From the NCBI GenBank assembly GCA_005777315.1, contig SXMN01000367.1:1-58978 (forward strand): 58,978 bases of DNA, written 5' to 3'. The notes beneath the pieces were generated by a model. It was given only the letters and a program-made list of their open reading frames with translations, did no database searches and had not been told where the DNA came from. Positions 1 through 20,865 of the stretch are shown here, in pieces. The stretch comes from Verrucomicrobiales bacterium (GTDB taxonomy: Bacteria > Verrucomicrobiota > Verrucomicrobiia > Limisphaerales > F1-12-MAGs170). Position 1 is the stretch's first letter, and each line of letters starts with the position of its first letter. The position numbers and the translations under genes were made by a program.

Positions 1-320
1 GATGCAGATGCGAGGCGCGAACGCGGGAGGATGCCCGCAGCGGCCTCTGACCAAGCGAGCAACGAAGCAGATGCGTCTGTGCCGCCGTCAAGATTTGTAG
101 CCTACCCCACGGTCTCCTCAGTAGCTCGCTTTGCCGACGTGCTCACCCCGGCCATCTTAACTTCCTCTTCCCCCCACAGCTTAGTGACGGAGGACGTCGT
201 TAACCAGTTTGCTGACATCGGGGCAGGCGTCCCATGATCGTGACTTCCCTCCGTCATCCTGCACCGGGGGAAGCGAGCGTGCGATCTGATGGGGCTTGGC
301 TACCGTGTGGACGCCGACTC

Positions 321-1511: not shown

Positions 1512-1570
1512 TTCAAGGAAGCTGCCGCCTTTGTCGTCAAGCTCTCGTCATGCAAGCGGCGCGTCGGCTG

Positions 1571-2737
1571 TCACAATTTGGCTGCCAGTTCGCCCAGTCG
1601 CGTTGCCCACGTATGACTCCGCATGACTCTTGCACGGCCTGCCTGCCCAATCAGCCGCGCACGCTCCGGCTCCCGCAACATCCGGCGGGTATTGTCCGCC
1701 GCTTCCCACATCGTGCGATACGTGAGAATTTCCTTTCCCACCTCGAAGGCTCTCGGCACGTCCTCATTGTGCTCCGTGAGATAGCAGCACCCGTAGCCTG
1801 GGAATTCTACATCGCGGAATTTCATGTAGCTCATGAATCGTCCCTGTTCATCCTTCCCTTGATTGAGGCCCAACACCACGCCGCAGCGTTGGATGAACGG
1901 TCCGAATTCCTCATCGCTCAACGCCCCTCCCGTCTGCGCCCGGACGAATTGCCAGAACACCCGGCGTAGTGCTTTTTCGACGAGCCCTCGTTTGAACAAC
2001 GCTTGCCATATTCGCTCAGATCGCGGCTTTGCGCTGTGGAATGGGTCCGGTCCATCGTTCGCCACCCAGCTTCGACCGCGTATCGTCACCCGGCATCCAA
2101 ACAACCTCAGCCATCCGAGTTGCGTGATCCGGTTTGATGAAGGCAGGCCGACAAAGGCCATCGGAACTTCGGGTGTTCGACAGCCTAAATCCGGCAGGCA
2201 CTCAGGGTTCATCGCGTAAGGTGCGCAAAGGCTCGGCACACCCAACGCCGCATAACGGCCCGCTGCCGCGCTCTCAGGAAACCAGTTGAGCGACACCACG
2301 CGCGCCAGCGGTTCCACTTTCTCGAACATGTGCGTGCTGTCACAGAAGAAATTGATCCAGGGAATGCCCCTTTGGATTGTCCGTTTCACCAGCTCCGGAT
2401 CGACATCCCACGCGAAGCAATAAGAGATCACCGCATCTAGCCCATGCTGCTGGTGCGCCTCACTGATCATTTTCCACAGTCGTTCGCTAGAAGTCGCACG
2501 TGGTTCGTCCAACGGCCCCGTGTCCACGTCATGCCCCTGTCGGGCCCAGTCGAAGTTCATTCCTTCGGGCGTGATCAGGATTTCCGTCAGTGGCCGCAGC
2601 GCATCGTAAATGTGTCTTCGCCAAAGAAACCGGTAATAGCCACTGGACACGTGACAATCGGGAGAGAGGGCGAAAATTTTGCGGGGAATCTTCACCTCAG
2701 AAAAGGCAGTCGAAACCACTGATTTCGCGGATTTCAC
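1571..2737 (-). CDS. CgeB-like glycosyltransferase (Glyco_trans_1_2 / DUF3880 type)
   Basis: 388-aa ORF. C-terminus (CCYLTEHNEDVPRAFEVGKEILTYRT...ARLIGQAGRARVMRSHTW) resembles the CgeB-family C-terminal GT domain, from recall only. Confidence 0.65.
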   Translation of the reverse strand: MKSAKSVVSTAFSEVKIPRKIFALSPDCHVSSGYYRFLWRRHIYDALRPLTEILITPEGMNFDWARQGHDVDTGPLDEPRATSSERLWKMISEAHQQHGLDAVISYCFAWDVDPELVKRTIQRGIPWINFFCDSTHMFEKVEPLARVVSLNWFPESAAAGRYAALGVPSLCAPYAMNPECLPDLGCRTPEVPMAFVGLPSSNRITQLGWLRLFGCRVTIRGRSWVANDGPDPFHSAKPRSERIWQALFKRGLVEKALRRVFWQFVRAQTGGALSDEEFGPFIQRCGVVLGLNQGKDEQGRFMSYMKFRDVEFPGYGCCYLTEHNEDVPRAFEVGKEILTYRTMWEAADNTRRMLREPERARLIGQAGRARVMRSHTWATRLGELAAKL

Positions 2738-2882
2738 GGATGAAGAGGAGCTGGCGACTGAGAGGGCTCTTACCAGGCGGGTGAATGTAAAAGATGCGCC
2801 GGCTCTCCCCGAAACGAATTGTTATCTGTGTTATCCGAGTCATCCGTGGTTTCTCAACTTCCTGATTCAGGTTCACCAGCGC

Positions 2883-3608
2883 TCACACACGTTTCGCGGC
2901 CACCAGGTAACTGAGGCAGATGACACGATTGCCCAGCCAGTCATCGAAGCGCGAAATCGTCCACGGCACCAGGTAATGCACGAAAACTTTGGCCACCATT
3001 CGCATCATCCATGACAACGCGCGGGGAACGGGTCCAAGTTTTTTCTCGGCCGCGCTCCAGCTCATGTAGAAAGCCTGGGCAAAGACAATCGCGGCCCGCG
3101 CCGGTCCGCCGACGGCTGTGATCGATTCAACTTCGAAACCCTTTCGTGGCAGCCAATGCTCATACCAATAACGGGTGAATCCTCCGTAGTAGTGGTACGG
3201 CTCCATGTGAAGATGCGACAACAACGGGGAAGTCAGGAATAATCGCCCTCCCGGCTTGAGCAGTCTCCGAAACTCGTCCAGCACCACCATTGGATCGACC
3301 ACGTGTTCGATGACTTCAGTGCAAAGGATGGCGTCGAGCGACTGGTCTGGAAGTGGAATCGAAGTGATGTCACCAACGAAATCAATCGGCTCGACATACT
3401 TCACCAGCGGGCCTTCGTACTTGCAGAAATCCTGCGTCTTGTAGTCGCAGTGCGCGAAAAATGGACGGTACTTGCTCGCGCCTGCCCCGGCGTCGAGAAC
3501 CTTCGCTCCCTTGGGCAAACTTTCCGCGTGTTCCTTGATCCAGTGGTCCCGCTGGTAAATGTCCGGGTGCCAGAAGCGCTCGCGGTCAGTCAGGATAAGT
3601 CGGTCCAT
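2883..3608 (-). CDS. class I SAM-dependent methyltransferase
   Basis: 241-aa ORF. Motif I VLDAGAGASKY and post-I/II region LKPGGRLFLTSP. Confidence 0.85.
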   Translation of the reverse strand: MDRLILTDRERFWHPDIYQRDHWIKEHAESLPKGAKVLDAGAGASKYRPFFAHCDYKTQDFCKYEGPLVKYVEPIDFVGDITSIPLPDQSLDAILCTEVIEHVVDPMVVLDEFRRLLKPGGRLFLTSPLLSHLHMEPYHYYGGFTRYWYEHWLPRKGFEVESITAVGGPARAAIVFAQAFYMSWSAAEKKLGPVPRALSWMMRMVAKVFVHYLVPWTISRFDDWLGNRVICLSYLVAAKRV

Positions 3609-3612
3609 AACG

Positions 3613-4899
3613 TCAGTCCCGCGTCTTGTTGTGCGCGGGTCGCGCGACAGTGCCGGGAGCCAGCGCCAGGCGCAAGATCATCGTCCGGCCCACAGCCATG
3701 CACACGAGCGGCGAAAGCCATAACCAAACCATGAAGGTGTTCCACGAGAGCGCCGCCGCAACAGCACTGGCCAGCGTCTTGAGTCCGGCCACCATCAACA
3801 TCACCTTCACCATTGCCGAGCTGTTATGCTGGCCTTGCAGCAGGAGGTAATAGAATTGGTTCCCGAGAGCCGCCAGCATCACAAGGCCGGCAGCCGCCAG
3901 CATCGGCAGTGCGGCGGCATATTTGTCGTCGATCAGCCAGCCCGTGAACATGGGCGCCACAAGATGCAGCGTCAGCAATCCCGCGAGGGTCAAGGCCACG
4001 AAACCGATGGTGATCCGGTCGCATTGGCGAGCAATGGTTCGCCAGTCGTCAGGCGTTCGGGCGTGATCCGACTTTTGAAAAATTCCGGGAAAGTACAATT
4101 GCATCAAGACGCCCACCGCCATCGTTGGAATGATTCCTCCGAGCTGGAGCGCGACACCGAACAGTCCCGCCTGGGCAGAGCCAAACGACTGTTCCACGAT
4201 CCAGCGGTCAGCGTATTGAAGCAGCCATGCACCGACTCCCAGCAACATGAAAGGACCCCCGTAATCCTTCAATTCCTGATGCCAATAAACAGACCTCGCA
4301 GCATCGGGCTTGGACGCGCCGATTGCTTTGTGAAATAGCGCCAGCAACAGGCCAATGATCAAGATCCCGTGCAGCGTGTAACCCACACTGAGCATTCCCA
4401 GACTCATCGTGGTCATCCAGGCAAAACCGAGTGGCGCGAGAACACGGGTTGCATTTCCCACTGTCGAAAGGAGCAGCATCTGCCACGGGCGTTGGGCCGC
4501 ATTCAGGACCAGCGAACCGATTCCATTGAGTGCCAGCGCCAGATTTGAGACGACCAACAACGGCAGCAACCAGCACCAGATCCAGTTGCCATCCTTCAAT
4601 GCCCGAATCAGTACCGTGAGCACCACGATCGGCACCAGAAGCCGAAGTCCCCGCCACGATTCAGTCCACAGGAAGCGGGCATATATCCATGCATGGTTCC
4701 CTTCCCGTTGCCAGTAACGCGACGCGTGGTTGGTGATTCCCGAGTGTGTGATCAGCGGGCCGATCTGTGTGAGCGACACAAAGAGGGTGTAGAGTCCATT
4801 CACATCGGGTGGAACCAGCCTGGTTATCAACTTCACCCCCACAAGCCCCAGCAGAAGCATCATCAACTGATTCGCCACGATGGGAACGAGCGAGCGCAT
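3613..4899 (-). CDS. polysaccharide/oligosaccharide flippase (Wzx-like, MOP superfamily)
   Basis: 428-aa polytopic membrane ORF in a glycan block. Its start overlaps the stop of the upstream methyltransferase by 1 nt. Confidence 0.75.
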   Translation of the reverse strand: MRSLVPIVANQLMMLLLGLVGVKLITRLVPPDVNGLYTLFVSLTQIGPLITHSGITNHASRYWQREGNHAWIYARFLWTESWRGLRLLVPIVVLTVLIRALKDGNWIWCWLLPLLVVSNLALALNGIGSLVLNAAQRPWQMLLLSTVGNATRVLAPLGFAWMTTMSLGMLSVGYTLHGILIIGLLLALFHKAIGASKPDAARSVYWHQELKDYGGPFMLLGVGAWLLQYADRWIVEQSFGSAQAGLFGVALQLGGIIPTMAVGVLMQLYFPGIFQKSDHARTPDDWRTIARQCDRITIGFVALTLAGLLTLHLVAPMFTGWLIDDKYAAALPMLAAAGLVMLAALGNQFYYLLLQGQHNSSAMVKVMLMVAGLKTLASAVAAALSWNTFMVWLWLSPLVCMAVGRTMILRLALAPGTVARPAHNKTRD

Positions 4900-5786
4900 C
4901 AGTCCGCGAGCAGCTCCCGGCCACTCGGCGCGAAGATCAAATTGTCATAGGCATACACTCCACGCGCTTCATGCCTCCTGAAACCGCCGTCGCGAAATTC
5001 CCACGGAACAAATCCAAGTCCACAGAGCAATTCCACCAGCGATCGACCTGTCGGAGCGCCCTCCGAGTCGCCTACTTCGAGTGAAATCAACGGGTGATCT
5101 TCCGCCAGCAGCCGTTTTCCGCCGGAGATGATTTCAGCCTCCGCCGACTCGGCGTCGATCTTCAGCAGCGCGACGGGCTTCTTCAGTTGCCGTTGAAATT
5201 CATCCAGCGTCGTGGTGGTCACATCGAATAATTTTGGCTCCGGAGCGCCGTTGGCTTTCGCGTTGGTGAAACTATTGAACGCCATCCATTGCGGACCATA
5301 ATCGCGGAACGACAACTTCTTGACCGAGGACCAGACGGCCTCCGGATGCACCACCACCTGGGAAAATGCCCCGACGTTTCGAGCCGCAATGTCGCGCGTT
5401 GAAGGAGTGGGCTCGAACGCGTGAACCTGTCCCTTCGCTCCCACCAGCCGTGCAAAGAGGGTTGTGTAGTAGCCCAGATGCATCCCGATATCGACAACCA
5501 GTTGGCCTGGTTTCACGAGATTTAGAAAGGCCTCCGTCAGCGAATCCTCGTAGATGCCGTAGCTCTCAATCTGCTGGCTCACCGCCTCGCCTTGCACCAC
5601 GGTGAAGCCATCCAGGTGGAAGCTCGTGCTGCGACGCAGGCTCCCCGTCAAGCCGGCGAACAAACCCCGCTTTCGAAGCTGATTGACGACGAATCGACGC
5701 GGGTTGATGAACGGCTTTTGCCATGACCTGGCAAGTTTGTAGCGCTGGCACGTTCGGAAACTTTGCAGAAGGTCGTGTGGTGACAT
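4899..5786 (-). CDS. FkbM family methyltransferase
   Basis: 295-aa ORF. VVDIGMHLGYYT...VHAFEP and LKIDAESAEAEII are typical of FkbM-type methyltransferases. Confidence 0.85.
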   Translation of the reverse strand: MSPHDLLQSFRTCQRYKLARSWQKPFINPRRFVVNQLRKRGLFAGLTGSLRRSTSFHLDGFTVVQGEAVSQQIESYGIYEDSLTEAFLNLVKPGQLVVDIGMHLGYYTTLFARLVGAKGQVHAFEPTPSTRDIAARNVGAFSQVVVHPEAVWSSVKKLSFRDYGPQWMAFNSFTNAKANGAPEPKLFDVTTTTLDEFQRQLKKPVALLKIDAESAEAEIISGGKRLLAEDHPLISLEVGDSEGAPTGRSLVELLCGLGFVPWEFRDGGFRRHEARGVYAYDNLIFAPSGRELLAD

Positions 5787-10726: not shown

Positions 10727-10781
10727 ATCCCAAGTCCGCCGAGCGATCCGAGCTCGTGAAGAGTTCCATTGCGGCTCAGTT

Positions 10782-11052
10782 CAGCGTCGAGCCGAACCTC
10801 ATCTTCCCATTGGCGTAGCCACCCTGGGATTCAGCCGACAGGCATTCCGGCAGGCATTCCGCCTTTACGACGTCTCCGAGGCGGGATATTGCCGCGGCGA
10901 CCTGGCCGGTCTTGAGGCTTTTTCAAAACAGCTTGCCGTGGACTCTGAATCGTGCGAAGTAAACGCCCGATGATGAGCAGCGGATCAGATTCGACTACTG
11001 TGTCTCCAGCCAAGGTGAATCTTTCTTTGGCGCTATTTTGCCGCTGTTTCAC
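10782..11052 (-). pseudogene. remnant of a tyrosine integrase N-terminus (decayed paralog of the integrase at 19538-20695)
   Basis: The nucleotide sequence aligns by eye with 20438-20695. It has an extra base near the start, an in-frame TAG where the intact copy has TAC, and a 12-nt tandem duplication at 10839-10862. Only about the first 90 codons remain. Confidence 0.7.
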
Positions 11053-11131
11053 AGCAGCAGTTTTGGGATGCAGTGTGGAAAATCAAATTGCGGTCCGCTG
11101 AAATCATCTAAAAGTCCAATAAACCGAGTGT

Positions 11132-11171
11132 GGAAGGGTGGCTGAGTGGTTGAAGGCACCTGACTCGAAAT
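11132..11171 (+). repeat. displaced 5' half of tRNA-Ser(CGA); att-type direct repeat (attL side)
   Basis: 40 nt identical to 20776-20815 (acceptor 5' strand through the anticodon loop). Identity stops one base after the loop. No 3' half follows. Confidence 0.85.
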
Positions 11172-11193
11172 TCAAAGCAGCCGGTTTTCTCAT

Positions 11194-11213
11194 TTTTGCC
11201 CACATTAGCGCAA
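11194..11213 (+). repeat. 20-nt direct repeat copy 1 (TTTTGCCCACATTAGCGCAA)
   Basis: Repeated with one mismatch at 11267-11286. Contains the imperfect inverted half-sites TTGCCC/GCGCAA. Confidence 0.6.
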
Positions 11214-11266
11214 CGCATCAAATGCACATGGATATTGGTCGGAATCGCCTTTTAGCTTGCCGCCAC

Positions 11267-11286
11267 TTTTGCCCACTTTAGCGCAA
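11267..11286 (+). repeat. 20-nt direct repeat copy 2 (TTTTGCCCACTTTAGCGCAA)
   Basis: See copy 1. The two copies start 73 bp apart, just inside the island's left end. Confidence 0.6.
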
Positions 11287-11297
11287 AAATGACCGGC

Positions 11298-11320
11298 CAG
11301 TATAGAAATGCAGTATAGAA
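11298..11320 (+). repeat. 23-nt motif CAGTATAGAAATGCAGTATAGAA (internal tandem CAGTATAGAA), left-arm copy
   Basis: An exact second copy lies at 20701-20723, between the integrase start and the tRNA. Confidence 0.7.
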
Positions 11321-11431
11321 TGATGGGTTCCCTGAAAGGTAGCGGCTCTGACCCTTTGGCACTTCCTGCCTTGAATCCGAGGACGCCCAAGCCTTGCATC
11401 CTATAACGGGGAGCGTTACGGTGTCCCGGCA

Positions 11432-11713
11432 ATGATACGGAACTTCGCCTGCCCTGAGACAGAGCGGCTGTTCTATGACGAGGCGGTGCGGCGGCTTCCA
11501 CCCGGCATTCAGCGGGTAGCCCGGCGCAAGCTGCTCCTGTTGCACCAGGCGCGGCGCGTCGATGATTTAAGGTCGCCGCCAGGAAACCGGCTGGAAACGT
11601 TGAAGGGCGACAGGAACGGGCAGCACAGCGTCCGTATCAATGACCAGTGGCGGCTGTGCTTCCGCTGGCAGGACGCAGACGCTTACGACGTGGAAATCGT
11701 GGACTATCACTGA
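11432..11713 (+). CDS. higB: HigB-type toxin (RelE/ParE superfamily, plasmid maintenance killer protein)
   Basis: 93 aa. C-terminus LKGDRNGQHSVRINDQWRLCFRWQDADAYDVEIVDYH is typical of HigB. Followed 2 nt later by higA. Confidence 0.9.
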   Translation: MIRNFACPETERLFYDEAVRRLPPGIQRVARRKLLLLHQARRVDDLRSPPGNRLETLKGDRNGQHSVRINDQWRLCFRWQDADAYDVEIVDYH

Positions 11714-11715
11714 GC

Positions 11716-12033
11716 ATGAAGACGAAGAAACTGGAACCGATCCATCCGGGAGAAATCCTCCGGGAAGAGTTCATGCAACCGCTCGGCTTGTCTCAGAACG
11801 CGCTGGCGCGGGCGCTCCGGGTTCCGCCCCGGCGCATCAATGAGATTGTGATGGAGAAGCGCGGCATCACGGCGGACACGGCCTTGCGGCTGGCCCGATA
11901 CTTTGGCACCAGCGCGGAATTGTGGACGGGCTTGCAGGCGGACTATGAGTTGCGGATGGCGCGTTACGAGACGGAGAGGGAAATCGAACGCGAAGTGTCG
12001 CCGCTTCATTCGGCAGCCCCGGTGCCGGCGTGA
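11716..12033 (+). CDS. higA: HigA-type antitoxin (XRE-family HTH)
   Basis: IHPGEILREEFMQPLGLSQNALARALRVPPRRINEIVMEKRGITADTALRLARYFGTSAELW is the HigA signature. Start placed at ATG 11716 inside track ORF 11647-12033. Confidence 0.9.
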   Translation: MKTKKLEPIHPGEILREEFMQPLGLSQNALARALRVPPRRINEIVMEKRGITADTALRLARYFGTSAELWTGLQADYELRMARYETEREIEREVSPLHSAAPVPA

Positions 12034-12067
12034 TCGCAGCCACCTTCTTCTACTTTATCTGGCGAGA

Positions 12068-12427
12068 TCAGGTCGGGCGAAAGCGGACGCGCCAAGTCTC
12101 CACGATCGCGAGTCGTCCGGGCAACCGTTCGATCAACTCCCTCTGCGAAAGAAACGAGTCCAACGCGCTCACGACGACATTTGCCACGGCATCGTCCGGC
12201 AACTGCAACACGACAATGCCGGAATAGTTTTCCGGCGGATAATTGCGGATGTCGGCAAAGTCGAAGTCCCGCGTGACCAGGGCCATGTCATGCGCTCGCG
12301 CGTGTCGCGCAATTGCCGCGTCATCCGGCCCCAATCCCACATCCCGGACATGCACCGCTTCGTGCCCGTGGCGAAGGAGCAATGGCCCGGTCGAACGCGG
12401 CATGTTGGCATCGATCAGAAAGTGCAT
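12068..12427 (-). CDS. DUF5615-family PIN-like protein (putative toxin)
   Basis: 119 aa. MHFLIDANMP...ALVTRDFDFADI. Lies directly downstream (7-nt gap) of a DUF433 gene, the usual pairing. Confidence 0.8.
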   Translation of the reverse strand: MHFLIDANMPRSTGPLLLRHGHEAVHVRDVGLGPDDAAIARHARAHDMALVTRDFDFADIRNYPPENYSGIVVLQLPDDAVANVVVSALDSFLSQRELIERLPGRLAIVETWRVRFRPT

Positions 12428-12434
12428 TGGCAGA

Positions 12435-12671
12435 TCAGCCGGGCAACGGATGATACTGCTCCTGCTCCACCAAATCCCCGGCGAACTTCAGGGCCGCCCG
12501 GATGTCCTCCATGCTCAGGTCGTATTCCTTCTGCACGGCGTCGAAAGTCATCCCTCCCGCGAGGCTGCCTACCACCAATGCCACGGGCATTCGCGTGCCA
12601 CGGATCACGGGCTTGCCGTGGCAGACCTTCGGGTCGATCACGATTCGTTCCAGCAAGTCGTCTCGTTTCAT
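12435..12671 (-). CDS. DUF433 domain protein (putative antitoxin)
   Basis: IVIDPKVCHGKPVIRGTRMPVALVVGSLAGGMTFDAVQKEY is the DUF433 core. Start placed at ATG 12671 inside track ORF 12435-12821. Confidence 0.8.
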   Translation of the reverse strand: MKRDDLLERIVIDPKVCHGKPVIRGTRMPVALVVGSLAGGMTFDAVQKEYDLSMEDIRAALKFAGDLVEQEQYHPLPG

Positions 12672-12866
12672 GGAATGCAGTGTAACCGAATCGACGAGTT
12701 TCGACAGCAGGGATTTTGTGTGTGGAGAGGGCAGCAATTCTCCGGGGAAGATTTCCGCAGCCTTGGGGAGGGAACGCCACGGAATTTTCAAAGGTTCGGA
12801 ACATAGATCGAAGATCAACAAAACGCAGCGAAGCTGACCGAAAGAGAGGCAAAATGCGACTCAACC

Positions 12867-14018
12867 TTATCGTGCCTTCATCCGATAAAACCATCCGGGA
12901 CGATCCGCGACGACGCCATCGGTCCAAGTCCCTTTCCCGATTGAATCCAGAGCTACGTTGCCTATCTGCTCCCAAGGGCCGTTAGGCACGGGTGAGCCCT
13001 CCACGACTACAGTGGAGTTCGGTGTGCCCGTCACGACGAGGCGTGCAACCATCGCGATGGATGTGATTACGGGTTGCTGGAACGGCGGTTCGGTAAGCGG
13101 TAATGAATCCCACGCCAGCGCGAAGTTGACCGTGTCATTAGACGTGAAGACACGGATGCTTTTATCGCTTCTTCTGAAAACACCAAGGATAGGCTGTGGC
13201 ATGACTGTTTCCACAGTGGTGCCGTCAGTCGCGTGAAAGCGCAGGGTCTCTCTTTGCCAGGCGAAAATCCCACCGGGCACGAGCAGAACCTTCCAGCCGG
13301 AATCAATGAACGCCAAGGGCACCAGAGACTCGCCTCGCAGGACGAAGAGCCTCCACTTGAGGTTCAAACTGTCTCTGATGAAGGTTCCAAGTTCACCACT
13401 AAAGACCGGTTCGACGATGAGATCCGTGACCTGATGCCAGAGCCTGCCGTCCAAGGAGCGCCAGGTTCCAGTACCTGTGCCTACGAAACTCTCTCCGTCA
13501 AAATACACTTGAGTTAGCGAGATCTTGGTTCCGTTCACCGGCCCCCACGGGTTAAGGTATTCTTTCCATGTGGCACCTGAATCCTCAGAAACGTAAACAA
13601 TGTTCTGCGCCACAGTGATCCACCGCGCCCCGTTGACTGCTGTCGATGTACCCAGGGCACCAGGGCGGGAATGCGCAATTCTTACGCTCTTGCCATCGAT
13701 TATTCGATAGAGGTTCGTCGCGACTTGGAAGACTCCGAGACCACGATGGATGGTGCGGTCAATATGGCCTAAGAAGCTGTATGTTAGCCGCGCGATGTTC
13801 TTTGCAGTCGTCCCTCCATCGATAGAGAAGGCAGCGTAATCACCTGGAGAGTATGGGTCCAAATCCTTGCCTTGCCCGACAATCACGCCGTCCACAGCGT
13901 AGCCCACGAGATTGAACTGCGATGCCGCTTGCTTCCACGGGGTCAGGGAGATGTCCAAGGAACGGGTGCCAACGGCGGACATTAGAATTGCCAGCATCAC
14001 TGCAATCGGAGTCTTCAT
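12867..14018 (-). CDS. exported protein with Asp-box (BNR-like) motifs, function unknown
   Basis: 383 aa. N-terminal signal-like MKTPIAVMLAILMSAVG. SEDSGATW matches S-x-D-x-G-x-T-W, with weaker FSIDGGTT and RSLDGRLW. C-terminal beta-sandwich-like tail ending GWFYRMKAR. Confidence 0.75.
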   Translation of the reverse strand: MKTPIAVMLAILMSAVGTRSLDISLTPWKQAASQFNLVGYAVDGVIVGQGKDLDPYSPGDYAAFSIDGGTTAKNIARLTYSFLGHIDRTIHRGLGVFQVATNLYRIIDGKSVRIAHSRPGALGTSTAVNGARWITVAQNIVYVSEDSGATWKEYLNPWGPVNGTKISLTQVYFDGESFVGTGTGTWRSLDGRLWHQVTDLIVEPVFSGELGTFIRDSLNLKWRLFVLRGESLVPLAFIDSGWKVLLVPGGIFAWQRETLRFHATDGTTVETVMPQPILGVFRRSDKSIRVFTSNDTVNFALAWDSLPLTEPPFQQPVITSIAMVARLVVTGTPNSTVVVEGSPVPNGPWEQIGNVALDSIGKGTWTDGVVADRPGWFYRMKAR

Positions 14019-14398
14019 GTTTTGATTCGCTTAAGTTCTTTCTCCCACAGGGACACGATTACATTCCTCCGTATCGGGAATTACTCAATCGAAATCAGTC
14101 ACCATCACGGGAAACTCCGAGTGAACGCAGCCGTGTGCCTTCAAGCATCGACCGGTTCACCCTCATCCTGTCGGCTATCCGCTGATACCGGACAATTTTG
14201 AGCGGTGCAACATTGGGACCGCTTCAGTCCACGATCACGTCCGGCTTGAGATTCCACCGTCCGAGCTGATTGGCGTCGATCCAGTCCATCACCGCCGCAC
14301 GGTCGGGAACTTCCGTCCAGAATTTACCGTGCTCAACCGCTCCCATGAACATGGATCAGGCTTGATGCAAAAAGCGTCCTTTCTCCACCGGCAGCTTC

Positions 14399-14683
14399 TC
14401 AAACACGGCTCCGGGCGTTCTGTAGCATTTCTTCCAACTGGCTCCGTATCGCCGTCCTGAACTGTTTTTTCGTCCAGCCCGGAAACGTTTCGGGAGACTC
14501 TCTTTCAAGGGTCTCACGGACCTCTTCGATAAGTGCTTTCAGTGTTTTCTCCTTCTCCTCGTCAGACCCGCCAATGATCCCGGAAACCTCATCGCTCCGT
14601 GATGTTCGCGCCACGGCTGACGGCTCGAACGTTCGCGAGACATTCGTTGCATCGCTTCTCAAGTTCGGAGCGTATCTGGTCAA
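14399..14683 (-). CDS. hypothetical protein (weak call)
   Basis: 94-aa ORF overlapping the upstream ORF by 95 nt in another frame. The real start is probably internal (GTG), or the two ORFs are joined by a frameshift. Confidence 0.3.
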   Translation of the reverse strand: MTRYAPNLRSDATNVSRTFEPSAVARTSRSDEVSGIIGGSDEEKEKTLKALIEEVRETLERESPETFPGWTKKQFRTAIRSQLEEMLQNARSRV

Positions 14684-15143
14684 CCGTCATTCCGTTCAGC
14701 ACAACAGGGCATTCTGAAATCATGTTTTGCATCCACTGTTTAACCGGACCTAGAAGCGCCCACATCAACTCTCCAACTTCATCCTCGGTCCACAACTCGT
14801 CATTGATCTTCTGCGTTCGTGCTTCGAGTGATGCGACTTGTGCGACGAGTTTGCGTGTTTCCAGGGCTTCCATCGGGTCCGGCACGCCCACGTTCGCATC
14901 AAGCCAGCCTTCGGGAAATTCTCCAGGTCGAACCCTGCCGCCGCGCATGGATGGATGCCCGGAGTTTTTCAGCCGCTTGAGTGCGGCCATCGAGACTCTC
15001 AACGCTGTGGAAGCTCGTTTCAGCGTGTCATAAGTGCGGTCGGTCGGGATGGCTTCCGCTGTCGTTTTGCTCCTGGCTTTTGTGCCGTCAGTTTTCATTG
15101 GGATTTGTGATTCGGGTGTTTTTCCGTTTTTTTCATGTCTCAC
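14589..15143 (-). CDS. hypothetical protein; possible Nu1/DUF1441-like small terminase subunit (weak)
   Basis: 184 aa. HTH-like TLKRASTALRVSMAALKRLKNSGHPSMRGG followed by a coiled-coil-like region. The architecture recalls lambda Nu1-type TerS, by eye only. Confidence 0.5.
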   Translation of the reverse strand: MRHEKNGKTPESQIPMKTDGTKARSKTTAEAIPTDRTYDTLKRASTALRVSMAALKRLKNSGHPSMRGGRVRPGEFPEGWLDANVGVPDPMEALETRKLVAQVASLEARTQKINDELWTEDEVGELMWALLGPVKQWMQNMISECPVVLNGMTVDQIRSELEKRCNECLANVRAVSRGANITER

Positions 15144-15197
15144 GTTTTTTGCGACGGGTGGCCTTGGCTGTTGCCCTGGGAGGAAGTAAAAGATTCC

Positions 15198-15398
15198 TTA
15201 CCGGGGGTGGGGTGGCCTTCGGGAATGGCCTGCCCGCGCTCTTGGCTGGCCTGCGGACGCGCTTGGATGCACTGCAAGCCGGAATCCGCGAAGCGCCACC
15301 TTCAACGCGCCCTTGAGCCGTTGCTCAGGCGTCCGGCGCAACACACGGTCTGGCAATGGCCGTAGGAGAATCACATAGTTTGGCGGCTGCTCAGTCAT
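15198..15398 (-). CDS. small hypothetical protein
   Basis: 66 aa. Its start overlaps the upstream stop in an ATGA (15395-15398). Confidence 0.45.
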   Translation of the reverse strand: MTEQPPNYVILLRPLPDRVLRRTPEQRLKGALKVALRGFRLAVHPSASAGQPRARAGHSRRPPHPR

Positions 15399-15598
15399 GC
15401 CTGAATGGCTTTCAACTTCTGCCGATGGATTGTCAGCCGTTGGCCGTGTTCATCCAGGCAGCGGAAGAACCCGGCTTTCTCGGATGGTCCAAGAATGCGG
15501 ACGCGTACCCGGGCGACCGGCGCGTAGTCAGGTCCGAGTGTGGCGATGAAGTGTGCGGTTGCTTGGGCCAGCGGATTTGCGTTTGTGTTTGTGGTCAT
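15395..15598 (-). CDS. small hypothetical protein
   Basis: 67 aa from ATG 15598 (MTTNTNANPL...). ATGA overlap with the upstream ORF stop at 15595-15598. The track ORF extends to 15712. Confidence 0.45.
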   Translation of the reverse strand: MTTNTNANPLAQATAHFIATLGPDYAPVARVRVRILGPSEKAGFFRCLDEHGQRLTIHRQKLKAIQA

Positions 15599-16215
15599 CG
15601 AGGTATCCTTGGCATTCGCTCCTGTATTCGTGGTGCTGAGTGAAGTGGCTGGCCTGTTCGACTCCAGCCAATCAGCCGACCGCGTGCTCCAAGTTGTGGG
15701 TGCGAAGACCATCTCGGGTCGTTGCGTAGTGCCAGCCAGGTTGCCAACACGTCAACGAAGTCTCCAGGTATTGGCTCGTCAGGACGCAAGACCATCGGAA
15801 CGCTTTTGCGACATGACCTGGACTCTTCAGTTGGTCTGGTGACGATCCTCTCCTGAGCAGTGGGTGGCGTGATGAGAGGATGTGGCGGGGGTGTCTTGGG
15901 CTCTATTTTCCAGACTACGCGGACGGCTGCTGACCTTGGTTGGCGGACGGCGCGGAGTTGTCCACCAGCCTTGCGCCGTGCATCCTCCAACTTGTGCGCC
16001 AGTTCCTTTTCAGCCCAGAGCGGTTGGCAATGCGTGCCATTCCACTCTCGCAGCACGGCCATTGCGTCCGCGTCTGACAAACCAAAGCGGACACACTCGC
16101 ACGCGGCGCGGAATGTCGCCGGGTGTCCACCAGCGCCGGACACGGCAGGCGGAACCTTGGCAAGGTAGGCTCGGCAGGCGGTAAGGGCATTCATGGCAGG
16201 CTTTCCTTGCTCCAC
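15595..16215 (-). CDS. PriCT-like (primase C-terminal helical) domain protein
   Basis: N-terminal ~95 aa (GGHPATFRAACECVRFGLSDADAMAVLREWNGTHCQPLWAEKELAHKLEDARRK) resemble PriCT domains. The rest is Pro/Arg-rich and low-complexity. Confidence 0.6.
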   Translation of the reverse strand: MEQGKPAMNALTACRAYLAKVPPAVSGAGGHPATFRAACECVRFGLSDADAMAVLREWNGTHCQPLWAEKELAHKLEDARRKAGGQLRAVRQPRSAAVRVVWKIEPKTPPPHPLITPPTAQERIVTRPTEESRSCRKSVPMVLRPDEPIPGDFVDVLATWLALRNDPRWSSHPQLGARGRLIGWSRTGQPLHSAPRIQERMPRIPR

Positions 16216-16311
16216 CCAACTCCACCCAAGGGGCTATACTCCTTAAGAAAGACACGGTTTTTCATAGTCTATAGACCCTTGGGTGGGCTTGGGTGGTTGG
16301 GTGGTTTTGAT

Positions 16312-18438
16312 TCATCGCGTGAAGCTATAGGCGTTTGTGAAATCCATGTCGCCCGACGGCTTGCGGTATTCCTTTTTACCGCGCGTCACGGTGAAGCCGT
16401 CCACGTCCACAGTTTCAGACTCGCGGAACACTTGCTTGCACAAGCTCCCGACTTGCCGCTTGGCGCGGTCTTCGTCGGCTGGTTTGCCGGGAACCTCGAT
16501 GCCGTGCAGCTCGCAAACCTCCACCAGTTCGGACGCGGTAAGGGCAATGCCAAGTCGGCTGTCGGCTACGACGGCCAGCGCCACGGCGCGAAGCCATGAC
16601 AAGGCCGGGTTGCTGGTGCGTTCCTGTGCGGCTTGGTGTCCATCCATGAGCGGCGCGCAGCCAAGGACGTGTTGAACGATCCAGTCGAGAACTTGGCACC
16701 ATTCGGTGAAGGAGTGGCGGGTGTCGCTGGTGCGCGGCTTCCCGTTGGCGATCCAGTCCATGATTACTGCGAAGGTGCAGCCGAGAAAATACGGCTGGCG
16801 CTTCTGAAGTTCTCCCAATGTGTCGCGATAGGCGAAGCCAGGTCTTTTGCGGATACGGCAAATGGCAGCACGATTGGCAAGGTCGGGGGTTGTTTCAAGC
16901 CCGTTGCTGCTCATTTGCAAAATGAAACGGCGCGGATCAATCAGGACTTCGCCACGGTGGGGAATGCGGGCAGGGAACAAACTTGGACACGTCAAAAATG
17001 CTTCAAGATTTTGCGAGTCCATTCGTCCACGGAAGTTGTCCAGGCAGATGAATGGCCGTGCCGAGACGAGCGCAGCGGCAAATGATTCGTCCACGCTGCC
17101 GACGCCGCCACTCTTGGCCGTCACGAAATAGCTGGCCTCGTTGAATAGCGCACAGATGAGGTTGTGACGATAGCCCTTCCCGCTCTGACTTTGGTCGGCC
17201 TCGGCGCAGTCCACCGGGATGTTGCCTCGAATAAATCCACCGATGCGAAGCGCTGGTGTCAGGAAGGCGGCCAGGGCGCGGCTACGGTCGCCTTCGCCCT
17301 GAAAGGTAAATTCATCCACCAGCCAGCGCAGAGTTTTCACGGCCTCGGCAAGCGGCACTTGGGGCGGTGCATCGCCGTCCACAATAAGCAAGCCGCCTTG
17401 CTCGACGTGATAACCACGGCAAAGAATTTCAACTTCACCGTTCGCGGTTTCAATCAGGACTGGACAACGAAGCACATTGGCAATGGGTGGCAGAAAATCG
17501 CGTGCCTCACTCGCAGCCAATAATTTTTTGGCGCATTCGACGGACATGTGCGCTGGCTTCAGCGCGGGTCCGCTTTCTCCACCAGCGCGCCACGCATACA
17601 GGTTGCCGAATTTGTCCACGCGACTGCAAAAGCCTTCCGGCTTCACCATGTCCAGACTCGTCACGCCGTTCACTGTCGCCACTTCCACCAGCGCGCCGCC
17701 ACGCCAGAACAAGGATCGGCTTGGTGCGATGCGTTGAAATATCACGCGCGCCGATTCGCTGATTGTCACGGGGCCAGACGGCAGGATGATGATGCTCGGC
17801 TCGGCGCTTCCGGCGGATTCCATGACCGGCGGTGTCGGCGCGCAGTTTTCCAAGGAGGCACCTTCAGGCAACGGAAGCGGGCTAGTGTCTTTCAACCAAG
17901 CGCCAGGATCGTCCGAAACGAAACACAAACGCAGCCGGTCTTTAACAGCGGGATCGATCTCAACGCCGTATGTGTCCCGGAAGTAGTTTTGAGCCGCTTG
18001 GAAACTTTCACTATGCCGACTGCCGTCGATCGACAATCCAAACTTCAGGCCGACGCCACTTGGTGATATGAAACCAAAAGCAACGTGCGGGTCGGCTTTC
18101 ACTTTCTCGCGCAACACTTCGAGCGTGCCGTCGAGCTGGTCGCAGTCGATTTGCAACAAGCCGGAATGCGTAAGCGGCTTGGTTCTGCTGGCTGCTGTGC
18201 CGGATACAAGGAACGCCGGCAGGCTTCTTTTTGCGCGCTGGTAACCTTCGTTGTCTGTTGCGCGGAGTGCTCGCAGTCGCGCCACTTGCCTTGCATATTT
18301 TCCTTCACGGATGGCCTCGATTACGGATGCAAGCGTGCAATCCTTCGGCTCTTTCGCGAAGGCATCGCCAAAAATTGAAACTCGCAATCCCGAGAACCAA
18401 CGGAGCGGAGGGAGTGCATCGTCTGCTGGTTGATTCAC
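16312..18438 (-). CDS. mobile-element replication protein: VirE_N/BT4734-like primase domain plus P-loop (SF3 helicase-like) domain
   Basis: 708 aa. N-terminal LPAFLVSGTA...LLQIDCDQL...FISPSGVGLKFG...RLCFVSDDP fits VirE_N-type primases. Central SQSGKGY (Walker A-like, GKG not GKS/T) and FICLDNF (Walker B-like). GTG start. Confidence 0.8.
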   Translation of the reverse strand: MNQPADDALPPLRWFSGLRVSIFGDAFAKEPKDCTLASVIEAIREGKYARQVARLRALRATDNEGYQRAKRSLPAFLVSGTAASRTKPLTHSGLLQIDCDQLDGTLEVLREKVKADPHVAFGFISPSGVGLKFGLSIDGSRHSESFQAAQNYFRDTYGVEIDPAVKDRLRLCFVSDDPGAWLKDTSPLPLPEGASLENCAPTPPVMESAGSAEPSIIILPSGPVTISESARVIFQRIAPSRSLFWRGGALVEVATVNGVTSLDMVKPEGFCSRVDKFGNLYAWRAGGESGPALKPAHMSVECAKKLLAASEARDFLPPIANVLRCPVLIETANGEVEILCRGYHVEQGGLLIVDGDAPPQVPLAEAVKTLRWLVDEFTFQGEGDRSRALAAFLTPALRIGGFIRGNIPVDCAEADQSQSGKGYRHNLICALFNEASYFVTAKSGGVGSVDESFAAALVSARPFICLDNFRGRMDSQNLEAFLTCPSLFPARIPHRGEVLIDPRRFILQMSSNGLETTPDLANRAAICRIRKRPGFAYRDTLGELQKRQPYFLGCTFAVIMDWIANGKPRTSDTRHSFTEWCQVLDWIVQHVLGCAPLMDGHQAAQERTSNPALSWLRAVALAVVADSRLGIALTASELVEVCELHGIEVPGKPADEDRAKRQVGSLCKQVFRESETVDVDGFTVTRGKKEYRKPSGDMDFTNAYSFTR

Positions 18439-18577
18439 TCAACACCGCCCTTCATCGCGCGCTGGCGCTTCCCACGAAAATCCGAGACGCGCTGTCCCGG
18501 CGACCAGCCGCGACGCAGGACGCGCTCAACGAGACGGCGGGTGCTGCCAGAACTGCGGGATGCACGGAGACCACGCT

Positions 18578-18796
18578 TCAATTTGCCTCCTCAGCCAGGA
18601 ACCTGTTGATCTCCGCCACGCTGATCAGCTTGTGACGAAGCGCATTCGACGCTTTGAGTTTGCCGCGCTGGATCAGGCGGTAAACCGAGTGGTAGTTGAC
18701 ACCGAGAGCCTGTGCGGCCTCCTCGATCTTGAAGGCCATCCGTGGAATCGGAATCGGCTGTGGAACGGATTTTTCTGCGGGCGCAAGGTTTGTCAT
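18578..18796 (-). CDS. excisionase/AlpA-family helix-turn-helix protein
   Basis: 72 aa. FKIEEAAQALGVNYHSVYRLIQRGKLKA is the HTH_17/excisionase-type motif. Located between the integrase module and the replication module. Confidence 0.8.
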   Translation of the reverse strand: MTNLAPAEKSVPQPIPIPRMAFKIEEAAQALGVNYHSVYRLIQRGKLKASNALRHKLISVAEINRFLAEEAN

Positions 18797-18857
18797 GCGC
18801 CCAATGTATTTACGCCGATCTTAGCTCATTGGAACACCATTGATTGTTTCCAAGGAA

Positions 18858-19541
18858 TCAATCGTTGCGCTTAACTCGCTGCCGCTTCGGGACTCTAAAG
18901 CCCAAGTCTGCTTTCAACTTTTTTGCGTCCGTCAACGCACTTTGCACCTTGGGAGCGACTTCCCGCGCCCGCTTTTTCGCCTTCGACAATTGAGCGCTCC
19001 AGGAATTGCTAAACACGATTTGCTCGTGAAGATCGATGTCCCAAATCTCGACCCAACGCCAGGAAACGGGGTTGCGTCGATGCTTTTCAGGCTGCCGTTT
19101 TTTGATGTCCCGTTGCCCGACAAGGAAGGTTTTAATGATCGCGCCAAAGCTTTTGATGATGGTCGAATCGGTCGCACGTAAATTGAACCGGATCGGCCAT
19201 GTAAAATCCGGGTCAACCGGCGATGTGTCGCAATGGTCGGAGGAAATTTTCCAAGGTTCTTCCACATGTGCCTTCCCAATCGCCTTGATGAGGCACTGAG
19301 ATTCATACATGTCCAACTTGGGCCAAGGCGGAAGCTGAAGATCGGGTTTAAGGCGGCGAACCAACTCATAGTCATGCGCGGCGGTTTCGCGTCCGCGACG
19401 CCAAAACCAAGTCGAGGCGTAATGATCTCCTTTGAGTGTGCGCCCTTTCTTTTCATAGTAAGTCCAGAGCTTTTTAGGGCCCAAAGTTTTGGGAGTACGC
19501 CACCACCATCCGTACGCTTCAGCCCGGTCTGAATCTTTCAC
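18858..19541 (-). CDS. hypothetical Trp-rich protein co-transcribed with the integrase
   Basis: 227 aa. Its GTG start overlaps the integrase stop (GTGA at 19538-19541). No recognisable family. Confidence 0.6.
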   Translation of the reverse strand: MKDSDRAEAYGWWWRTPKTLGPKKLWTYYEKKGRTLKGDHYASTWFWRRGRETAAHDYELVRRLKPDLQLPPWPKLDMYESQCLIKAIGKAHVEEPWKISSDHCDTSPVDPDFTWPIRFNLRATDSTIIKSFGAIIKTFLVGQRDIKKRQPEKHRRNPVSWRWVEIWDIDLHEQIVFSNSWSAQLSKAKKRAREVAPKVQSALTDAKKLKADLGFRVPKRQRVKRND

Positions 19542-20695
19542 GAGATGGCCTCTTGCTGAAGTTGAACAACGTTGGCCGGCGTTGCCGTTGAAAACGAAAC
19601 ACGCTTCGCCATCTCAGCCGAGTGCTGGTCCCGAAGATGTCCGTAAACCTTCATCGCCAAAGCGCCCCCGTCCTTGTGACCAAGCCATCGCGAGACGGTC
19701 GGGATGTCCACGCCGCTTTCAATGCAACGTGTCGCGAACAGATGGCGAAGATCATGGTGGGTAATTCTTTTCATCTTCACCAGTTCGGTTGCCCGATCCA
19801 TGTTCCCCTGACATTCGCCTACACGCATCACACAGTCATGGTCTTCATGCGGTTGCTCGCTTCGCAATCGCTCTAGCAGCCCCCGCATTTCCTCGATGAT
19901 GGGCACAATCCTCTCCTCGGAGTTCTTTGTGCCCGACTCCGCATCACCGCGAACCCTGATTGTCCCCCGATCCAGATCGACATCCCCCCAGGTGACGTTT
20001 GAGGCTTCACCCTTCCGAAGTCCGCTGTAGGCCAGGAAGCGGACCAGATCCGCGCTTCCGTGGCATTGGCACACGCCTGCATTCTCGATAGCAGCCACCC
20101 ATTTCTCGAATTGCATCTGTGATGGAAGGTGAAGCTTCTTCAGTTGTGGTCGCGCTCGTTTGACGAACCTGGCGGGATTGTCATATCTGGCCCCCAGTTC
20201 GACCGCGACATCCAAGACGTGCCTCAGGACAGACACCGTGTTGTTGTAAGCAGTCGGGCTCGCTTCCTGACTGAACCGCCCTGCCCAGTCCAGGCATTCC
20301 GTTCTCGTTATCCTCCGAACATCCAGCTTCCCAAGCGAAGGCCAGGAGCGCTCAAGCGCATTGATTCGTTCGTGATAGTAAGACTTGGACCTCGGCTTTA
20401 GGGAGACATCCCCGTTGAGCCTCGCCTTGTAGATGTCCAGCGTTGAGCTGAACGTCATCTTCCCATTGGCGCAGCCAGCCTGTGATTCAGCCGACTGGCG
20501 TTCCGCCTTTTCGAGGTCTCCGAGGCGCAGTTTTGCCACGGTGACTTGATCCGTCTTGAGGCTTTTCCAAATCAGCTTGCCGTGAACCCTGAATCGTGCG
20601 AAGTAAACGCCCGATGATTTGTAGCGGATCAGATTCGAGTACTGCGTCTTCAGCCAAGGGGAATCCTTCTTTGGCTCTATTTTGCCCTGTTTCAC
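19538..20695 (-). CDS. int: tyrosine-type site-specific integrase
   Basis: 385 aa. C-terminal catalytic region HDLRHLFATRCIESGVDIPTVSRWLGHKDGGALAMKVYGHL (R..HxxR..Y). GTG start 80 nt from the tRNA 5' end. Confidence 0.9.
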   Translation of the reverse strand: MKQGKIEPKKDSPWLKTQYSNLIRYKSSGVYFARFRVHGKLIWKSLKTDQVTVAKLRLGDLEKAERQSAESQAGCANGKMTFSSTLDIYKARLNGDVSLKPRSKSYYHERINALERSWPSLGKLDVRRITRTECLDWAGRFSQEASPTAYNNTVSVLRHVLDVAVELGARYDNPARFVKRARPQLKKLHLPSQMQFEKWVAAIENAGVCQCHGSADLVRFLAYSGLRKGEASNVTWGDVDLDRGTIRVRGDAESGTKNSEERIVPIIEEMRGLLERLRSEQPHEDHDCVMRVGECQGNMDRATELVKMKRITHHDLRHLFATRCIESGVDIPTVSRWLGHKDGGALAMKVYGHLRDQHSAEMAKRVSFSTATPANVVQLQQEAIS

Positions 20696-20700
20696 AACGG

Positions 20701-20723
20701 CAGTATAGAAATGCAGTATAGAA
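20701..20723 (+). repeat. 23-nt motif CAGTATAGAAATGCAGTATAGAA, right-arm copy
   Basis: Exact copy of 11298-11320. The decayed older copy at about 11057-11080 reads cagttttgggatgcagtgtggaa. Confidence 0.7.
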
Positions 20724-20775
20724 AGTCAAATCGTGGTCTGCTGCAATCGTCTAAAAGTCCAATAAAACCAAGTGT

Positions 20776-20865
20776 GGAAGGGTGGCTGAGTGGTTGAAGG
20801 CACCTGACTCGAAATCAGGCGTAGTCGAAAGGCTACCGTGGGTTCAAATCCCACCCCTTCCGCCA
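20776..20865 (+). tRNA. tRNA-Ser (anticodon CGA)
   Basis: Hand-folded cloverleaf. Acceptor GGAAGGG/CCCTTCC, anticodon stem CCTGA/TCAGG with loop CTCGAAA, long variable arm, T arm GTGGG-TTCAAAT-CCCAC, encoded CCA. Confidence 0.9.

Follow-up and report, generated by a model that had tools for sequence, protein, structure and literature searches.

Phage satellites influence gene transfer, defence against phages and the dynamics between phage and host. The PICI (phage-inducible chromosomal island) core comprises five components, of which the one for capsid morphogenesis is optional in 'Type B' elements, and, in catalogues based on known families, more than 99.9% of the PICIs detected are found in Proteobacteria or Firmicutes (de Sousa et al. 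2023, PMC10085698). A second group, the virion-encapsidated integrative mobile elements (VEIMEs), was recovered as concatemers from marine virions, including elements of Verrucomicrobia; these are small and tRNA-associated, carry an integrase, a primase-helicase, an AlpA/excisionase protein and sometimes a small terminase (TerS) or a serine protease, and differ in sequence from the reference satellites (Eppley et al. 2022, PMC9618062). The 58,978-nt contig SXMN01000367.1 of a Verrucomicrobiales assembly (GCA_005777315.1), the whole of which is called the window below, contains an island of 9,644 bp (positions 11172-20815) that by its gene content is a strong candidate for a PICI-like satellite. 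Its predicted proteins would provide four of the five PICI core components, i.e. an integrase, a small helix-turn-helix (HTH)/excisionase protein as candidate regulator, a primase-replicase (pri-rep) and a TerS, in a 'Type B' layout. We consider it probable that this is a PICI-type phage satellite that integrates and replicates by itself and comes from a Verrucomicrobiota-like host.

The limits of the island are sharp and are given by a direct repeat of one half of a tRNA gene. The first 40 nts of tRNA-Ser(CGA) are present a second time at a spacing of 9644 (repeat D4, 98% identity across 51 nt), and the identity between this left copy and the tRNA stops at tRNA nucleotide 40, just beyond the anticodon loop. 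It follows that the island spans 11172-20815; it interrupts tRNA-Ser(CGA) at the anticodon loop and provides a new 5' half for the tRNA. As in PICIs, a tyrosine integrase thus goes with a specific attachment (att) site, here tRNA-Ser(CGA) with its 40-nt direct repeat. The minus strand carries, in this order, the integrase, a 227-aa protein, the HTH protein, the primase-helicase, an iteron origin, a PriCT-like protein, two tiny open reading frames (ORFs), the TerS homologue, a small ORF and cargo, all core genes being co-directional. A preliminary description, made from the DNA letters and ORF translations, had placed a satellite-like gene set at 14399-18796; the genes are all present, on the minus strand, but this span holds only the core, the integrase and the 227-aa ORF lying outside. 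The features on which the argument rests are as follows:

20776-20865, plus strand: intact tRNA-Ser(CGA), the sole tRNA of the window (ARAGORN; Rfam tRNA, 60 bits)
20776-20815, plus strand: attR core, supplied by the island, the first 40 nt of tRNA-Ser(CGA) (repeat D4)
11132-11171, plus strand: attL core, a displaced copy of the tRNA-Ser 5' half (repeat D4)
19538-20695, minus strand: tyrosine integrase, 385 aa (Phage_integrase, E 1e-20; phrog_1, E 1e-54)
18578-18796, minus strand: 72-aa excisionase-family HTH protein (HTH_17, E 9e-11; phrog_66; TIGR01764)
16312-18438, minus strand: 708-aa protein with an archaeo-eukaryotic primase (AEP) domain (BT4734-like_N, Pfam E 2.5e-15) and a D5-like superfamily 3 (SF3) helicase
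16212-16304, no strand assigned: candidate replication origin, iterons in the 117-nt gap after the primase-helicase stop
15595-16194, minus strand: PriCT-like protein, 199 aa (206-aa ORF), with an N-terminal PriCT_1-like domain
15128-15205, minus strand: conserved non-coding 85-nt block between the stop of a 66-aa ORF and the terS ATG, core GGCAACAGCCAAGGCCACCCG
14589-15098, minus strand: TerS homologue, 169 aa (ATG at 15098), by family profile and genomic context

The TerS homologue is 169 aa long in the public gene call, and a 184-aa version starts at a GTG at 15143. An exhaustive phmmer search of 1.8 billion representatives yielded 22 distant full-length relatives (150-240 aa, E 3e-20 to 1e-3). 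PHROG 57 (TerS) was matched over nearly the whole profile by 16 of the 22 (best E 3e-10), and PHROG 141, also TerS, was additionally matched by four relatives. A family hidden Markov model (HMM) built without the window protein (36 members) recognised this protein over residues 20-180 with 66.7 bits (E 1.4e-22). Two of the relatives, P0132 (phmmer E 4e-5 to the query) and P0169, are encoded directly upstream of a large terminase (TerL) of the GpA_ATPase family, followed by Phage_portal_2 and Peptidase_S49, and the contigs concerned are 28-43 kb long; as judged from the gene families, this TerL-portal-S49 neighbourhood is a lambda-type head module. In the phage contig L108, the closest relative, P0122 (37% identical), is encoded between the TerL and portal genes. 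As relatives sit beside TerL, portal and S49 genes, the function of the family is settled, and the 184-aa protein is established, transitively and by sequence comparison, as a TerS homologue. The protein and its TerL-adjacent relatives have in common a conserved C-terminal ELPPxLxG region. The PICI component that redirects packaging would therefore be present, as read from the family profile and genomic context.

An AlphaFold2 model of the 184-aa protein (predicted local distance difference test, pLDDT, 87) has a small winged-HTH-like N-domain followed by three long helices. Compared by Foldseek, the model had no match in the PDB, and its best named match in BFVD is a TerS, a weak one (probability 0.93, E 0.08). 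The preliminary description had likened the protein to TerS of the lambda Nu1/DUF1441 type; the assignment to TerS is borne out, but not that to Nu1/DUF1441. Neither the protein nor any of the 22 relatives matched Phage_Nu1 or DUF1441 in Pfam at E<=0.1, and lambda Nu1 scored only 6 bits against the family HMM.

No homologues of TerL, portal, protease or capsid proteins of the lambda-like set were found anywhere in the 59-kb window, and Pfam, PHROG, NCBIfam and PADLOC revealed no capsid, portal, TerL, tail, lysis, relaxase or known defence family among the island proteins. The expectation that structural genes would be missing thus holds for the island and, as regards the lambda-like set, for the window, and structural, tail and lysis genes are absent from the island as in PICIs.

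The replication module consists of the 708-aa protein, the candidate origin and the PriCT-like protein. The preliminary description had read the 708-aa protein as a VirE_N primase with a P-loop domain, and BT4734-like_N is VirE_N renamed. The AlphaFold model (pLDDT 76) was matched by Foldseek to poxvirus D5/E5, PriRep1 (7pds), the SaPI5 primase-helicase (7ola) and NrS-1 (probability 1.0, E 4e-7 to 6e-5), in agreement with the earlier reading, and on its predicted fold the protein is a pri-rep analogue. More than 300 homologues were found, mainly in metagenome-assembled genomes (MAGs) of Verrucomicrobiota, the others in Lentisphaerota, Kiritimatiellota, Planctomycetota and further phyla; an integrase is encoded 1-2.5 kb upstream in about 45 related loci. 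In GenBank phages, matches were limited to the primase domain and came from Bacteroidota phages. The preliminary description had also suspected a PriCT-like protein. The 199/206-aa protein itself has no Pfam match; PriCT_1 (PF08708) was matched by 8 of 18 members of its family (best E 1.9e-4), and its N-terminal ~100 aa adjoin the primase in 23-36 related loci. By these comparisons, it is a conserved partner of the primase-helicase.

A side observation concerns the primase-helicase relatives: a helicase part of ~500 aa, 66-77% identical to the window protein, is fused to differing primase domains (BT4734-like_N, Toprim, PrimPol or zf-CHC2), and such shuffling of the N-terminal primase domain was seen in P0064, P0080, P0088, P0091, P0096 and P0118.

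Read along the gene strand, the candidate origin comprises three CCACCCAA iterons as direct repeats, then a spacer of 49 nt and a further two copies in inverted orientation. Of the six occurrences of the 8-mer CCACCCAA in the window, five fall within these 93 nt, when 2.3 are expected across the whole 59 kb. A strict exact-7-mer test detected the same architecture, direct iterons, spacer and inverted iterons after the primase stop, at 27 of 95 related loci but in none of 1,798 random control segments; several further loci show it by eye. In the related origins, the number of direct iterons ranges from 2 to 4 and that of inverted iterons from 2 to 3; the spacer between them has 53-69% A+T and mostly measures 47-61 nt (86 and 97 nt in two viral contigs). 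The iterons differ by lineage (CCACCCA, CGCACCC, CGCACAA, CGCACCA, CCGCAGC, GTACACC and others), as would be expected if origin and initiator co-evolve, which they do in PICIs and in the Staphylococcus aureus pathogenicity islands (SaPIs) (PMC6092414). At the level of sequence and predicted fold, the island thus has the primase-replicase module followed by an iteron origin of a PICI. The iteron origin had been missed in the preliminary description.

The 72-aa protein exceeds the cut-off of the TIGR01764 'excisionase family' (29.3 bits, cut-off 28.8) and has no match to Phage_AlpA in Pfam. Of its earlier designation as excisionase/AlpA-type HTH, the excisionase family and the HTH are retained and the AlpA type is not; from its sequence, the protein is a candidate Xis or AlpA-like regulator.

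Orphan genes for phage heads or packaging are also found in four further small islands, one in each. The first (L106) contains a tRNA-Asp, an integrase, an HTH protein, a CHC2/Toprim primase-helicase, a 172-aa ORF, a 151-aa TerS-like protein and a GerE regulator, without TerL. In a MAG of Akkermansia muciniphila (L028, positions 1-5400; CAMCFN010000024.1), a primase-helicase is followed by a 74-aa ORF, a 160-aa TerS-like protein (family HMM, E 1.3e-8; phrog_57, 1.4e-3) and GerE, with a tRNA-Met ~3 kb beyond GerE and no TerL in the 9 kb downstream; this locus is a possible satellite in a human-gut species. A third island (L011) has a primase 60% identical to that of the window and a TerS-like protein that matches PHROG 57 at 8e-9, again without TerL. 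The fourth (L098/L099; L098 6835-16668) is ~10 kb long, has a primase 68% identical and the same CCACCCAA iterons and ends at tRNA-Ala; here, a ClpP-type head-maturation protease (phrog_2976, E 3.7e-60) flanked by small unassigned ORFs replaces TerS, and capsid, portal and terminase genes are absent. More distant relatives are true (pro)phages or resemble the capsid-forming PICIs (cfPICIs); they encode TerS and TerL, in some cases together with a portal, downstream of the primase. The genes neighbouring the relatives encode terminases, nucleases and methylases. The PICI/SaPI-like layout of int, HTH, pri-rep and terS with cargo at one end, put forward in the preliminary description, is supported by the four core components and by these sister islands with their orphan genes. 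The computational checks that it had suggested all turned out in favour of its reading.

These loci lead to a tentative suggestion, which may well prove wrong, of a lineage of modular satellites spread across the Planctomycetes-Verrucomicrobia-Chlamydiae (PVC) group, A. muciniphila included. Its members would have in common one replicon, made of the D5-like primase-helicase, a co-evolving iteron origin and the PriCT-like partner, combined with interchangeable single hijack genes (an orphan TerS or a prohead protease) directed at phages with lambda-type heads; the 85-nt block would be a packaging signal copied from a helper or a mimic of a late promoter.

This block lies within the 99-nt gap upstream of the terS ATG, ~100 nt before terS. 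It aligns with positions 1219-1297 of phage contig L108 with ~76% identity over 82 columns and in the same orientation relative to the genes. L108 was chosen solely for carrying the closest TerS relative. In blastn, the E value of the match is 9e-6 when the phage loci are searched and 1e-4 when the search covers the 1.77 Mb of all loci, where it is the top match outside homologous genes. The L108 copy is intergenic; it lies between a P-loop ATPase (DnaC-like by eye) and the rightward genes that follow, and precedes their first start codon by ~95 nt. The 10-mer at its centre, GGCCWWGGCC, is inverted in one copy relative to the other. As judged from the alignment and its position, the block could be a packaging signal of the cos/pac type or a late promoter responsive to a helper, and either role would fit a satellite-helper relationship. 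The 21-nt core had 7 and 45 exact matches in IMG/VR and JGI metagenomes, respectively, but their flanks are unrelated and these matches are therefore attributed to chance; no further true copy of the block was found in the two collections. A 12-mer in common with the sister island L011 was also set aside, as its distance from the gene varies and it may be due to chance.

The island was compared with the described satellites. It resembles SaPIs with their own TerS (SaPI1, SaPIbov1) in its terminal integrase with a specific att site, its HTH protein, its primase-helicase of PriRep fold with an iteron origin, its own TerS without TerL, the absence of structural and lysis genes, its cargo at the far end and its size of ~10 kb. 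In contrast to SaPIs, its genes have no sequence homology to theirs beyond generic families, no Stl-type repressor was recognised in the island, a divergent regulatory region and recognisable capsid-morphogenesis genes are lacking, and the host is Verrucomicrobiota-like. Furthermore, its TerS family partners GpA-type (lambda-like) terminases and not staphylococcal pac phages. With EcCICFT073, a representative of the Gram-negative PICIs that exploit lambda-like helpers, the island has in common the layout of int, small HTH, pri-rep and packaging specificity, a presumed lambda-type helper and, maybe, a helper-like cis site. EcCICFT073 has no TerS, carries the helper cosN and redirects the phage TerS by Rpp (PMC6092414; PMC6739421). 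The island differs from it in having its own TerS homologue and in its 72-aa protein, which is of the HTH_17 excisionase family and not Phage_AlpA.

Like P4, the island is ~10 kb long and integrative, has a small HTH protein (Vis/AlpA in P4) besides its integrase and a primase-helicase (alpha in P4) next to an ori, and would depend on a helper for late functions. P4 has no TerS, and it has cis sites (cos, late promoters) in common with its helper P2; the 85-nt block may parallel this sharing of cis sites. As no island protein matched Psu, Delta, Sid or Epsilon in PHROG or Pfam, the analogy with P4 is the generic one of the primase-helicase. The left half (int, regulator, pri-rep) is like that of cfPICIs, and distant relatives of the replicon carry TerS and TerL directly after the primase; cfPICIs encode capsid, portal, protease, connector and terminase proteins of their own and are short of tails only, whereas Pfam and PHROG searches of the island detected neither these four head proteins nor a TerL. 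VEIMEs are defined by their recovery from virions, whereas the island is from freshwater, is known from its genes and is likened to them by description. The preliminary description was not aware of characterised satellites in this host group. The virion-packaged elements reported in marine Verrucomicrobia by Eppley et al. (2022) mean that the group is not wholly new for satellites; beyond this report, our literature search found none of a satellite in Verrucomicrobiota or Akkermansia.

As a satellite, the island would have the following cycle. A helper phage with a lambda-type head module would infect the cell or be induced, and the island would be excised by Int and the HTH protein and would replicate from its own origin. 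The island TerS would bind island DNA, the candidate site being the 85-nt block upstream of terS, and would recruit the TerL of the helper so that island DNA enters helper capsids. Packaging would probably be concatemeric, as four units amount to 38.6 kb, inside the 28-43 kb of the contigs with related TerS. Interference with the helper would result from packaging at its expense, and the toxin-antitoxin pairs and a putative secreted protein would be cargo.

Several results weigh against the satellite reading. The 184-aa protein has no direct match to Pfam, PHROG, NCBIfam, PADLOC or PDB sequences, nor by tblastn to 50,697 GenBank phages, and a word-index homology search retrieved only the protein itself; the TerS assignment is therefore transitive. 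The closest phage TerS is just 37% identical and does not adjoin TerL in L108. No capsid-morphogenesis or size-redirection gene was recognised by Pfam, PHROG or NCBIfam, although an analogue might be concealed among the small unassigned ORFs, and five island ORFs have no assignable function. The block has a single partner, in L108, and may act as a promoter instead of a packaging site. The analysis identified no helper phage, and neither the island nor a relative with a primase more than ~41% identical is present in IMG/VR. In three freshwater metagenomes that carry the island, its assembler depth (24.3, 21.2 and 23.7) equals that of its flanks, and no circular/attP or empty-site junction was found; the 'joints' listed in these metagenomes are short contigs from related sequences. 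In the same three runs, no other terS or block sequences at least 80% similar were detected.

This lack of any sign of excision or amplification would also fit an island that integrates and replicates by itself without being packaged, its TerS-like protein being a decoy or interference factor against phages with lambda-like heads, as in a defence island, or a DNA-binding regulator. The N-domain of the protein is an HTH and a few family members weakly match HTH_17 and the excisionase PHROG 66; the island has two toxin-antitoxin pairs, which are common in defence islands; and a GerE/LuxR regulator accompanies the TerS-like gene of both L106 and L028. We nevertheless hold this explanation to be unlikely. 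The protein keeps the full-length TerS architecture including its C-terminal region, the island has a complete set for integration, excision and replication that a pure defence island does not need, and PADLOC recognised no defence family in it. As known satellites pair interference with their own packaging, the defence explanation also overlaps with that of a satellite.

It is less probable still that the island is the remnant of a decayed prophage whose TerS-like gene was left behind by a deleted head module. Such an origin would account for the presence of the same primase-helicase and TerS families in genuine (pro)phages with TerL and portal (L071, L078, L085, L086, L088, L090, L091, L107) and for the decayed integrase fragment that adjoins the island. 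However, neither the tRNA nor either of the att ends is damaged, every ORF is open and the packing is tight, with overlaps of 4 nt, terS comes directly after the replication module and has cargo, not TerL, behind it, and the compact arrangement recurs in four other sequence-unrelated islands of ~10 kb bounded by tRNAs. Island-bearing metagenome contigs are, in addition, identical to the window sequence. Small islands with int and a primase are often mobilisable, and the five unassigned ORFs leave room for an integrative element that is transferred by conjugation with a relaxase or oriT provided in trans; we regard this as very improbable. Pfam, PHROG and NCBIfam found no relaxase, coupling-protein or type IV secretion system (T4SS) families in the island. 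The relaxase or conjugation genes that the preliminary description had thought might turn up in relatives were not found either: relaxase and T4SS families are absent among the families listed for 149 ORFs neighbouring the relatives, and the primase-helicase had no match among 72,556 plasmids (PLSDB). The only genes of the family that can be recognised as related to transfer are those for phage packaging and heads.

If the satellite reading is true, the element and its relatives extend PICI-like hijacking based on TerS to Verrucomicrobiota, including Akkermansia. Present detection tools would probably overlook such elements, whose proteins match nothing directly in the family libraries; the module of primase-helicase and iteron origin, present at ~100 loci, provides a handle for finding them. 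The orphan TerS and protease genes would point to the type of helper, phages with lambda-like heads, and would make the helper-satellite pairing directly testable in a phylum that has been little studied.

The remaining features of the island and of its left border are as follows:

18858-19541, minus strand: 227-aa protein with no assigned family, start overlapping the integrase stop by 4 nt
15395-15598, minus strand: 67-aa ORF, translationally coupled to the PriCT-like gene, no matches
15198-15398, minus strand: 66-aa ORF, start overlapping the stop of the 67-aa ORF (ATGA), no matches
14399-14614, minus strand: 71-aa ORF (maximal ORF 94 aa, to 14683), overlapping the terS 3' end, no matches
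12867-14018, minus strand: 383-aa cargo protein, N-terminus signal-peptide-like by eye
12435-12671, minus strand: cargo, DUF433 partner of the DUF5615 toxin (Pfam DUF433, E 5.9e-22)
12068-12427, minus strand: cargo, PIN-like DUF5615 toxin (Pfam DUF5615, E 8e-19)
11716-12033, plus strand: cargo, HTH_3 antitoxin, HigA (Pfam HTH_3, E 7e-10)
11432-11713, plus strand: cargo, HigB-like toxin (Pfam HigB-like_toxin, E 7.8e-20)
10779-11131, minus strand: decayed remnant of a second related element (repeats D1-D3; tblastn with the island integrase)

The 94/71-, 66-, 67-, 227- and 383-aa proteins match no family in Pfam, PHROG, NCBIfam or PADLOC, and the ~100 related loci contain essentially no homologues of them; the 227-aa protein has two weak relatives in sister loci and the 383-aa protein is confined to this element. 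The 199-, 67- and 66-aa ORFs overlap successively by 4 nt, as anticipated from the tiny coupled ORFs noted in the preliminary description. The 66-aa ORF (…NYVILLRPLPDRVLRRTPEQRLKGALKVALRGFRLAV…) is absent from the public gene calls, and its stop overlaps the start of the 85-nt block. In the higA region (window 11700-11870), assemblies break at 11854 in two of the metagenome runs, and high-depth short contigs occur there (up to 150x versus 24x) together with a 'skips 151' joint (11714 to 11866); a relative of the HigA region appears to be repeated or variant in the community.

Directly left of attL, the stretch 10779-11131 repeats 20435-20775 with 80-87% identity (repeats D1-D3). This segment encodes integrase residues 4-87, 72% identical to the island integrase and with two in-frame stops, and a copy of the spacer between int and the tRNA. 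As read from these repeats, it is what is left of a related element that had occupied this tRNA-Ser site before, which speaks for tandem or serial integration. The island integrase faces the 5' end of the tRNA; in the relatives L100 (tRNA-Glu), L106 (tRNA-Asp) and L012 (tRNA-Thr) the integrase adjoins the 3' end, so that the orientation found here is unusual within the family.

The G+C content of the island is not distinctive. Farther along the window, 28100-58100 looks like a large cluster of the surface-polysaccharide/O-antigen type, judged by eye from ORF translations without a family scan; this reading saw no prophage genes in it. Its contents, by eye, are epimerases, DegT-type aminotransferases, a UDP-sugar dehydrogenase, a flippase, an asparagine-synthase-like protein, a WecB-like epimerase and glycosyltransferases. 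The G+C content drops to 0.46-0.53 around 38-45 kb, and an IS630-like transposase is apparently encoded at 55248-56393, also by eye.

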